DNA from: Escherichia phage 232Ecol030PP
DNA length: 64,000 nucleotides
Sequence record: PP355090.1
Strand: one strand, 5' to 3'
In this document: positions 37,535 to 38,362 of the stretch, in pieces
How positions within the stretch are numbered: position 1 is the first letter of the stretch
Layout: every line of letters starts with the position of its first letter
Made by a program: the position numbers and the translations under genes
The notes under the pieces: generated by a model
Databases searched by the model: none
Told to the model about the DNA's origin: nothing
Seen by the model: the letters and a program-made list of their open reading frames with translations, nothing else

Positions 37535-37610
37535 TGGTCGAGGCAGTAGGGATCGAACCTACGACCCAGGACTTAGAAGGTCCTTGCTCTTCCTTCTGAG
37601 CTATGCCTCG
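37535..37610 (-). tRNA. tRNA-Arg (anticodon TCT)
   Basis: Hand-folded cloverleaf: acceptor CGAGGCA/TGCCTCG, anticodon loop CTTCTAA, T-loop TTCGATC, encoded CCA. Confidence 0.8.
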
Positions 37611-37614
37611 GATT

Positions 37615-37689
37615 TGGCGGACGTGATAGGATTCGAACCTATAACCAATCGCTTAACAGGCGATCGCTCTGCCATTGAGCTACACATCC
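37615..37689 (-). tRNA. tRNA-Asn (anticodon GTT)
   Basis: Acceptor GGATGTG/CACGTCC (one G-U), anticodon stem ATCGC/GCGAT, loop CTGTTAA, T-loop TTCGAAT, CCA. Confidence 0.7.
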
Positions 37690-37693
37690 AAAT

Positions 37694-37780
37694 TGGTGGG
37701 GAGTGATGGAGTCGAACCACCCGAGTCGCAATGACAATGGATTTACAGTCCACACCGCTACCTCTACGGGATAACTCCCC
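37694..37780 (-). tRNA. tRNA-Tyr (anticodon GTA), class II with long variable arm
   Basis: Acceptor GGGGAGT/ACTCCCC, anticodon loop CTGTAAA, variable arm TGTCATTGCGACTCG, T-loop TTCGACT, CCA; architecture like bacterial tRNA-Tyr. Confidence 0.6.
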
Positions 37781-37789
37781 AAATTAATT

Positions 37790-37864
37790 TGGTGGCCCTG
37801 GGTGGAATTGAACCACCATCTGGCGATTATGAGTCGCTTGCTTGAACCTTCCAGCTACAGGGCC
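37790..37864 (-). tRNA. tRNA-Ile (anticodon CAT, lysidine-type; could be scored as Met)
   Basis: Acceptor GGCCCTG/CAGGGCC, anticodon loop CTCATAA, T-loop TTCAATT, CCA. Confidence 0.7.
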
Positions 37865-37865
37865 T

Positions 37866-37941
37866 TGGTGCTGATTGACGGAATCGAACCGCCGACCTTC
37901 TCATTACAAGTGAGTTGCTCTACCTACTGAGCTAAATCAGC
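37866..37941 (-). tRNA. tRNA-Thr (anticodon TGT)
   Basis: Acceptor GCTGATT/AATCAGC, anticodon loop CTTGTAA, T-loop TTCGATT, CCA. Confidence 0.8.
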
Positions 37942-37946
37942 AAAAC

Positions 37947-38036
37947 TGGCGGAGGCGATAGGATTTGAACCTATGAGTCGCCGGAGCGACTGCCGGTTTT
38001 CAAGACCGGTGCATTAAACCACTCTGCCACGCCTCC
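37947..38036 (-). tRNA. tRNA-Ser (anticodon TGA), class II
   Basis: Acceptor GGAGGCG/CGCCTCC, anticodon loop CTTGAAA, long variable arm, T-loop TTCAAAT, CCA. Confidence 0.8.
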
Positions 38037-38038
38037 AG

Positions 38039-38112
38039 TCTCCGTGGCAGGATTTGAACCTACGACATTCTGCTCCCAAAGCAGACGCTCTACCAAACTG
38101 AGCTACACGGAG
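38039..38112 (-). tRNA. tRNA-Pro (anticodon TGG)
   Basis: Acceptor CTCCGTG/CACGGAG, anticodon loop TTTGGGA, T-loop TTCAAAT; CCA not encoded. Confidence 0.75.
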
Positions 38113-38122
38113 TAAATTAAAT

Positions 38123-38196
38123 TGGAGCGGATAATGAGAATCGAACTCACATCATCAGATTGGAAGTCTGAGGTAATACCATTATACGATATCCGC
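38123..38196 (-). tRNA. tRNA-Gly (anticodon TCC)
   Basis: Acceptor GCGGATA/TATCCGC, anticodon loop CTTCCAA, T-loop TTCGATT, CCA. Confidence 0.8.
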
Positions 38197-38201
38197 AAAT
38201 T

Positions 38202-38288
38202 TGGTGCGAGAAGTGGGACTCGAACCCACAAGGAAATCATTCCGCAGCATTTTAAGTGCTGTGCCTTTACCAATTTGGCCATTCTCGC
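38202..38288 (-). tRNA. tRNA-Leu (anticodon TAA), class II
   Basis: Acceptor GCGAGAA/TTCTCGC, anticodon loop CTTAAAA, long variable arm, T-loop TTCGAGT, CCA. Confidence 0.8.
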
Positions 38289-38289
38289 G

Positions 38290-38362
38290 CTGGGAATAAA
38301 GGACTCGAACCTTTGCATCCTGGAATCAAAATCCAGTGCCTTACCAACTTGGCTAATTCCCA
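38290..38362 (-). tRNA. tRNA-Gln (anticodon TTG)
   Basis: Acceptor TGGGAAT/ATTCCCA, anticodon loop TTTTGAT, T-loop TTCGAGT; CCA not encoded. Confidence 0.75.

Follow-up and report, generated by a model that had tools for sequence, protein, structure and literature searches.

A ten-tRNA cluster without segB in the T-even Escherichia phage 232Ecol030PP and its relation to the T4 tRNA region

Phage T4 carries the gene of the homing endonuclease SegB in the middle of its transfer RNA (tRNA) genes, where Escherichia phage 232Ecol030PP has genes for tRNA-Tyr and tRNA-Asn. The question raised by this locus is which of the two arrangements is the departure, and what the additional tRNA genes may do. 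We analysed a stretch of 64,000 nucleotides of this phage (PP355090.1), called the window below. The window belongs to a Tequatrovirus (T-even phage). Over the 24 kb around the tRNA array, identity was 99.5% with several isolates already published, among them Yersinia phages PYps14T and PYps15T and Escherichia phages vB_EcoM-CHD2BS1 and G3F6, and the 1.4 kb around the array showed 99.6% identity to many genomes. Judged from its sequence, the locus is very probably a segB-free cluster of the T2/RB3/RB14 type, with ten functional tRNA genes followed by homologues of rnaD and rnaC and by a terminator.

Layout of the array and comparison with named phages

ARAGORN found exactly ten tRNA genes in the window, and every one of them lies on the minus strand at 37535–38362. 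Read in the direction of transcription, the genes are Gln(UUG), Leu(UAA), Gly(UCC), Pro(UGG), Ser(UGA), Thr(UGU), a tRNA with the anticodon CAU, Tyr(GUA), Asn(GUU) and Arg(UCU). ARAGORN drew a cloverleaf for all ten, and the 3′ CCA is encoded by eight of them, the exceptions being Pro and Gln. With the Rfam model RF00005 (threshold 29 bits), nine of the array tRNAs scored 59.9–74.1 bits and tRNA-Tyr scored 30.2 bits. The coordinates and anticodons agree with those of an initial annotation of this DNA, which had also correctly described tRNA-Tyr as class II; this tRNA has a long variable arm. The compact spacing that it reported was found as well, but the range is 0–10 nt by ARAGORN boundaries and not 1–9 nt; from Arg to Gln the intergenic gaps are 4, 4, 9, 1, 5, 1, 10, 5 and 0 nt. 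The G+C content of the array is 49%, against 35% for the window. A chance occurrence of such an array can be dismissed. Sub-threshold Rfam matches within the array (tRNA-Sec at 34.4 bits, Plastid-ycf2, sX4 and YrlA) overlap tRNA genes and were treated as look-alikes.

No open reading frame (ORF) stands free between the tRNA genes of the array, and tblastn with T4 SegB against the whole window gave no real match (best E = 0.15), in agreement with the earlier statement that the array holds no homing endonuclease ORF. A hidden endonuclease gene was considered and rejected: with the proteins T4 SegB and NR1 seg-like and the trna.1 ORF of T2 as tblastn queries, all matches were at chance level (E of at least 0.12), and the best of them is antisense inside a 660-amino-acid ORF at 46587–48569 on the plus strand. 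The locus is situated between the e.8 side and trna.2/trna.3/trna.4-ipI-57B, and in a three-way alignment its flanks align with T4 and RB14 on both sides. The ORF at 38460–38747 corresponds to trna.2.

The annotation of RB14 shows these ten genes too, with order and spacing unchanged, and homologues of rnaD and rnaC come after them. RB14 is 97.9% identical to the window over 1,401 bp, with scattered point differences only. The Tyr-Asn segment of RB3 (AJ884578) is 99.4% identical to that of the window. Taken separately, the two halves of the array are both matched at 100% identity in further published phages, and the best match of the full array is 99.8% identical. The CAU, Asn and Arg genes of T2 are 100% identical to those of the window and its Tyr gene is one base off. 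T2 has nine tRNAs, however, with the ORF trna.1 in place of Thr and the ORF trna.2 after Arg, where the window has Thr and neither ORF.

At the same locus T4 has Gln-Leu-Gly-Pro-Ser-Thr-Ile, segB, Arg, rnaD and rnaC. The initial annotation had correctly given the count of eight tRNAs for T4 and the place of segB between the Ile and Arg genes. The Gly and Ser genes are identical in T4 and the window, Leu and Thr are nearly so, and rnaC agrees at 137 of 139 positions. T4 lacks Tyr and Asn, has a segB of 666 bp, and its Ser gene has no encoded CCA. The difference from T4 had been placed in the spacer alone. Tyr and Asn do stand there against segB in T4, but the difference extends beyond the spacer, since the Ile(CAU) and Arg genes of T4 are other alleles, 62.7% and 65.8% identical to those of the window. 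T6, whose tRNA-rich region was studied by Chihara et al. 2026 (PMC13096335), is a mosaic of seven tRNAs without Pro, Ser and Asn, in which a T4-type CAU gene, Tyr, segB and a T4-type Arg gene follow each other; its tRNA-Tyr is shared with the window, with two differences in 87 nt by alignment. In NR1 a seg-like gene takes the place of Pro, and His is added.

An eleven-tRNA variant, found in many relatives (for example wV7, slur11 and UGKSEcP1), contains the same ten genes in order plus an insert of ∼190 bp between Asn and Arg that carries tRNA-His(GUG); the window lacks this insert. The Tyr, Asn and His genes of these eleven-tRNA relatives all have GUN anticodons. Such tRNAs belong to the queuosine-modified family, which is also the target of colicin E5.

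Frequency, ancestry and the SegB target site

Is the window an exception among its relatives? Brok-Volchanskaya et al. 2008 (PMC2330249) described tRNA regions without segB in T2L, RB1 and RB3, carrying Met(CAU), Tyr, Asn and Arg. Ten tRNAs each were listed for RB3, RB14, RB18, RB26 and LZ2 by Petrov et al. 2010 (PMC2993671), together with 8 for T4, 9 for T2, 7 for T6, 7 for RB15, 8 for RB32 and 9 for RB51. We made a census of 50,697 phage records, in which a record was counted if one place covered at least 80% of the query. The Gln-to-Thr block was found in 487 records, the Tyr+Asn segment in 395, the CAU-Tyr-Asn-Arg block in 377 and T4 segB in 126; on the other hand, GenBank/RefSeq duplicates are contained in these figures, which also depend on thresholds of BLAST coverage. 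Tyr and Asn are present in roughly 70–80% of the relatives. To estimate how many ten-gene arrays are uninterrupted, matches to the whole array were sampled at even intervals, which yielded 27 records with at least 80% of the array covered. Seven were uninterrupted as in the window, 11 contained the His insert of ∼190 bp, and in the other 9 the array was partial or was broken by an ORF or an endonuclease gene. The ten-tRNA layout without segB is already known and is ordinary for its group. It had initially been presented as an accessory-locus difference from T4, a view that was to fall if the layout proved standard for the group; the RB14 annotation, the papers of 2008 and 2010 and the census all show it to be so.

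The same allele is found outside the genus. At the syntenic locus of Mosigvirus PhAPEC2 the order is CAU-Asn-Arg, with an Arg-Asn segment 89.8% identical to that of the window, and the syntenic locus of Karamvirus CC31 contains a tRNA-Tyr 91% identical to the window's and an Asn gene. Since two sister genera hold the Tyr/Asn/Arg allele at the same locus, this allele should predate the genus and the T4 segB allele should be derived. On these sequence comparisons, the Tyr-Asn block is the common and apparently ancestral state, and the eight-tRNA-plus-segB layout of T4 is the derived one. The proposal that a segB spacer had been replaced by Tyr and Asn thus has its direction reversed: the Tyr/Asn allele occurs in Mosigvirus and Karamvirus, and it is the target of SegB.

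The preferred site of SegB is a 27-bp sequence in the 3′ part of the T2L tRNA-Asn gene (Brok-Volchanskaya et al. 2008, PMC2330249). According to this paper, the site has a 5′ GGTTCRANTCC motif and a 3′ CCAR, and it differs from the site in tRNA-Ser at G6, A16, G18, A26 and A27. The 27-mer GGTTCGAATCCTATCACGTCCGCCAAA was reconstructed from the text of the paper and was not read off its figure. The reconstructed site starts with GGTTCGAATCC and contains CCAA, and all the described positions fit. The Asn and Ser sequences of the window differ at exactly positions 6, 16, 18, 26 and 27. T2L (AJ880101), T2, RB14 and NR1 all have the reconstructed 27-mer, which is missing at the locus in T4 and T6. 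Because its tRNA-Asn gene carries the reconstructed site base for base, the window would represent an uninvaded recipient allele. In crosses of T4 and T2L, SegB converts the tRNA block with nearly 100% efficiency (PMC2330249). In a mixed infection with a segB-carrying phage, the CAU-Tyr-Asn-Arg block of the window would be cleaved, and the T4-type allele would take its place.

Identity of the tRNA-Tyr and CAU genes

The count of ten depends on tRNA-Tyr. The identity elements of bacterial-type class II tRNA-Tyr include the discriminator A73, and the gene in the window has A73, a GUA anticodon, a long variable arm and a cloverleaf. An alternative is that it is a decaying or non-functional tRNA-like sequence, which would leave a functional array of nine tRNAs. 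Several observations speak for this and weigh against ten functional genes. The score of 30.2 bits is barely above the threshold of the general Rfam model, and the sub-threshold tRNA-Sec match scores higher. The ARAGORN cloverleaf has one mismatch in the D stem, which also contains a G-U pair, and several G-U pairs overall. Thermodynamic folding did not recover the cloverleaf and was no better than for shuffles (z = −0.9), and RNAalifold mis-paired the D and variable arms of six Tyr homologues. Homologues are labelled tRNA-OTHER in some GenBank records, and the T6 tRNA-Tyr was reported to be relatively unstable (PMC13096335).

E. coli tyrU scored 53.4 bits with RF00005, but the T5, T6 and NR1 homologues of tRNA-Tyr fell below the threshold. 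The T5 tRNA-Tyr is annotated in its record as an amber suppressor once its anticodon is replaced, and the T6 tRNA-Tyr is visible on northern blots and rescues infection (PMC13096335). Since these homologues score lower than the gene in the window and are experimentally active, the low Rfam score would be a trait of the phage tRNA-Tyr family and not a sign of decay. The poor folding was not counted against the gene because tRNA folding relies on tertiary contacts and modifications. The gene keeps A73, G34-U35-A36 and the long variable arm, it is conserved across hundreds of genomes, and the changes in the anticodon stem among six homologues from phages and plasmids are compensatory. Its variable arm and most of its T arm are identical to those of T5 Tyr, and the variable arm also to that of T6. 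For the RB14 Tyr gene, 98.9% identical to the window's, the record cites tRNAscan-SE 1.23. We consider decay of tRNA-Tyr highly unlikely.

Where else is this gene found? A host origin was tried and rejected, as blastn against 5,426 E. coli genomes gave plasmid copies only and zero chromosomal matches. Among these 5,426 complete genomes, 269 have a plasmid-borne tRNA-Tyr to which the gene is 94.3% identical, for instance on pEC881_2 (109 kb), probably a phage-plasmid, in which an Asn-Tyr-Thr-Ser cluster is located near DNA ligase and integrase genes. Identity is ∼95% to the copies of rV5-like phages and 85% to T5, and the window, plasmid, rV5-like and T5 genes agree throughout the variable arm and over most of the T arm.

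ARAGORN labelled the CAU gene as Met(cat). The determinants of TilS for tRNA-Ile2 are C4-G69, C5-G68 and an ileX-like anticodon arm. The nearest E. coli genes are annotated as tRNA-Ile, with 81.6% identity over the full length. The anticodon arm AGCGACTCATAATCGCC of the CAU gene is the same as in the E. coli tRNA-Ile gene, and its acceptor stem contains C4 and C5. The gene most likely encodes a tRNA-Ile2, predicted to be modified with lysidine and to read AUA. Public records disagree on this tRNA, which is mostly given as Met and sometimes as Ile or Ile2, and the authors of the T2L study named it tRNA-Met (PMC2330249).

Features of the transcription unit and its neighbours

As listed in Table 1, the tRNA genes are followed by further elements on the same strand. 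The rnaD and rnaC homologues and the terminator, which the initial annotation had overlooked, are part of the tRNA unit. The rnaD homologue begins with the same 1-nt offset after tRNA-Arg as in T4, and its folding was better than that of all 200 shuffles (200/200, z = −3.8). For the rnaC homologue z was −4.6. The rnaC homologue carries a tRNA-like T arm, with GGTTCGAATCC at 37281–37291. This 11-mer is the one that opens the recognition consensus of SegB, and it may constitute an extra weak SegB site. The hairpin downstream of rnaC is likely to be the 3′ end of the tRNA/stable-RNA transcription unit. A sigma-70 promoter scan gave 4 sites against 3.9 in shuffled sequence, and a promoter was not assigned.

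Table 1. Position and supporting evidence of the tRNA genes and associated elements in the window.
Feature	Position	Strand	Evidence
tRNA-Gln(UUG), first gene, without encoded CCA	38289-38362	-	RF00005 67.4 bits; 87.8% identical to T4
tRNA-Leu(UAA), class II	38202-38288	-	RF00005 64 bits; 86/87 identical to T4
tRNA-Gly(UCC)	38123-38196	-	RF00005 65.8 bits; 74/74 identical to T4
tRNA-Pro(UGG), without encoded CCA	38038-38112	-	RF00005 69.7 bits; 84% identical to T4
tRNA-Ser(UGA), class II, 3′ CCA encoded	37947-38036	-	RF00005 62.6 bits; body 87/87 as T4
tRNA-Thr(UGU)	37866-37941	-	RF00005 72.9 bits; 96.1% identical to T4, 84.2% to E. coli thrU
CAU tRNA, T2-type allele	37790-37864	-	RF00005 59.9 bits; 100% identical to T2, 62.7% to T4 tRNA-Ile
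tRNA-Tyr(GUA), class II, 87 nt, not in T4	37694-37780	-	RF00005 30.2 bits
tRNA-Asn(GUU), not in T4	37615-37689	-	RF00005 74.1 bits (best of the array); 100% identical to T2 and NR1
tRNA-Arg(UCU), T2-type allele	37535-37610	-	RF00005 65.8 bits; 100% identical to T2, 65.8% to T4/T6
27-bp reconstructed preferred SegB site, T arm to CCA+2 of tRNA-Asn	37613-37639	-	single exact match in the window
rnaD (species 2 stable RNA) homologue	37414-37533	-	102/115 identical to T4 rnaD
rnaC (species 1 stable RNA) homologue	37269-37407	-	137/139 identical to T4 rnaC
Intrinsic-terminator-like hairpin and T run	37195-37218	-	10-bp stem with 7 G-C pairs, then TTTTT

At the 3′ end of the tRNA-Ser gene (37947–37952), CCA is encoded in the window (CTCCGCCAGTTTT) and not in T4 (CTCCG-TAATTTT). 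This difference alters the reliance on the host CCA-adding enzyme and, within tRNA-Ser, the CCAR element of the secondary site for SegB. The changes in Gln and Pro with respect to T4 cluster in the anticodon stem/loop and the T stem, and the Gln loop reads UUUUGAU where that of T4 reads CUUUGAC. RB14 has the Gln allele of the window but a T4-type Pro allele.

Two copies of a 35-bp direct repeat, 97% identical and 554 bp apart, are present at 36632–36666 and 37186–37220 on the minus strand, and each forms a strong terminator hairpin. They bracket an ORF of 157 amino acids (36671–37144) that is not in T4 and has no Pfam match. The arrangement looks like a small gene cassette that brought a terminator copy of its own when it was inserted. 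The ORF at the corresponding position in RB14 is larger and is annotated as similar to RB69ORF148c/149c. Nothing above the Pfam threshold was found for the ORFs at 36671–37144, 38460–38747 and 36167–36442.

Codon supply, defence and homing

By analogy with T4, the cluster would be transcribed as polycistronic precursors, from which host RNase P and enzymes of 3′ processing would release the tRNAs. The A-ending codons UUA, GGA, CCA, UCA, ACA, AUA, AGA and CAA are read by eight of the tRNAs. These codons are 1.6–8 times commoner in the ORFs of the window than in E. coli (AGA 8.0-fold, AUA 5.7-fold, GGA 3.8-fold), figures which are weakened by their dependence on heuristic ORF calls and a single 50-kb sample of E. 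coli K-12. Tyr and Asn are outside the rare-codon logic of the eight T4-type tRNAs. As a share of residues, Tyr amounts to 4.53% in the phage and 2.55% in E. coli, and Asn to 6.30% and 3.73%; these are the two largest excesses. A supply-and-demand role of the two tRNAs is supported because Tyr and Asn are the most over-used amino acids. The primary role of the cluster would be a tRNA supply matched to the demand of an AT-rich phage, and as a second role it may make up for host tRNAs that defence nucleases have cut. The earlier suggestion that the locus could affect codon supplementation or nuclease resistance is reasonable, backed as it is by amino-acid usage and by the experiments on T6 tRNA-Tyr, and it is not new.

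Published work shows that PtuAB of Septu and of retron-Eco7 cuts tRNA-Tyr in the variable arm, and that T5 tRNA-Tyr counters retron-Eco7. Over-expressed or amplified T6 tRNA-Tyr rescues T6 from Septu, T6 with its tRNA region deleted is more sensitive, and T4, which has no tRNA-Tyr, is unable to escape Septu (PMC13096335). The E. coli substrates of AriB of PARIS are tRNA-Lys, tRNA-Thr and, with lower efficiency, tRNA-Asn, the cut falling after C40 within UAAUC, and the T5 versions of these three tRNAs rescue infection. In E. coli tRNA-Asn the published cut is U36AAUC/C41 (the slash marks the cut). The tRNA-Asn of the window reads UAAGC/G where that of E. coli reads UAAUC/C, with G39 as in T5, and the tRNA-Thr of the window has G40 instead of C40. 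The likeness of the Tyr, Asn and Thr genes of the window to anti-defence tRNAs is to be read as a resemblance only.

Could Tyr and Asn be primarily anti-defence genes, serving as nuclease-insensitive or extra copies against PtuAB of Septu and retron-Eco7 and against AriB of PARIS, with codon supply secondary? The experiments with T6 and T5 tRNA-Tyr point in this direction, as does the contribution of T5 tRNA-Asn to escape from PARIS. In its variable arm the tRNA-Tyr of the window is identical to T5 and T6 and differs from E. coli. Position 39 of tRNA-Asn is G in the window and in T5 and C in a plasmid; E. coli has U there, and the change disrupts the UAAU motif beside the AriB cut. tRNA-Tyr also circulates at 85–97% identity among unrelated E. 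coli phages and plasmids, as a traded counter-defence gene would. On the other side, a protective role of the cluster is weakened by three published points: Septu cuts T6 tRNA-Tyr too, and protection was obtained only if this tRNA was over-expressed or amplified, a single copy at wild-type number being insufficient (PMC13096335); tRNA-Asn is a minor, secondary target of AriB, and the rescue of T4 and T7 did not need it; and the tRNA region is non-essential for the development of T4 and T2L (PMC2330249), so that any benefit should be conditional. Moreover, Tyr and Asn have the highest excess demand, and supply alone can explain their presence. A primarily anti-defence function is quite possible, but it is not what we would expect.

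The dispensability of the tRNA region, together with the nearly complete conversion by SegB in T4 and T2L crosses, also fits a different account, in which the presence or absence of Tyr and Asn is mostly a neutral side effect of the traffic of homing endonucleases, their distribution tracks encounters with SegB or seg-type enzymes, and the block is dispensable. The locus is mosaic across T6, T2 and NR1, and about a third of the sampled array-covering records have an inserted endonuclease gene or ORF. However, the Tyr+Asn pair is kept in most relatives and in sister genera, its sequences are nearly invariant, with compensatory changes in the Tyr anticodon stem, and the match to amino-acid demand is specific. 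This account appears unlikely. A broader conjecture, which the sequences suggest and which we put forward as rather doubtful, is that the optional T-even tRNAs (Tyr, Asn and His) may form a counter-defence module whose substitutions in the variable arm and anticodon stem would blunt nucleases of the PtuAB and AriB types, with Tyr traded between unrelated families of coliphages and phage-like plasmids, and that invasion by SegB would strip a phage of some of this protection. The preferred reading remains that of an ordinary segB-free cluster in which supply would be the primary role.

As a discovery the locus matters little, since publications of 2008–2010 already covered the layout, the lack of segB and the SegB target within tRNA-Asn, and hundreds of relatives are alike. 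The corrected frame is that T4 is the atypical member, and that a phage like 232Ecol030PP is a natural recipient allele for SegB homing. If the counter-defence conjecture were true, the spread of the selfish SegB would conflict with immune evasion, its best site being inside tRNA-Asn. The locus is also topical, as phage tRNA-Tyr and tRNA-Asn genes help escape tRNA-cutting bacterial defences. Because phage tRNAs aid this escape, a phage with this cluster may differ from T4 on hosts with Septu, retron-Eco7 or PARIS, and such a difference in behaviour would matter for the choice of therapeutic T4-like phages.

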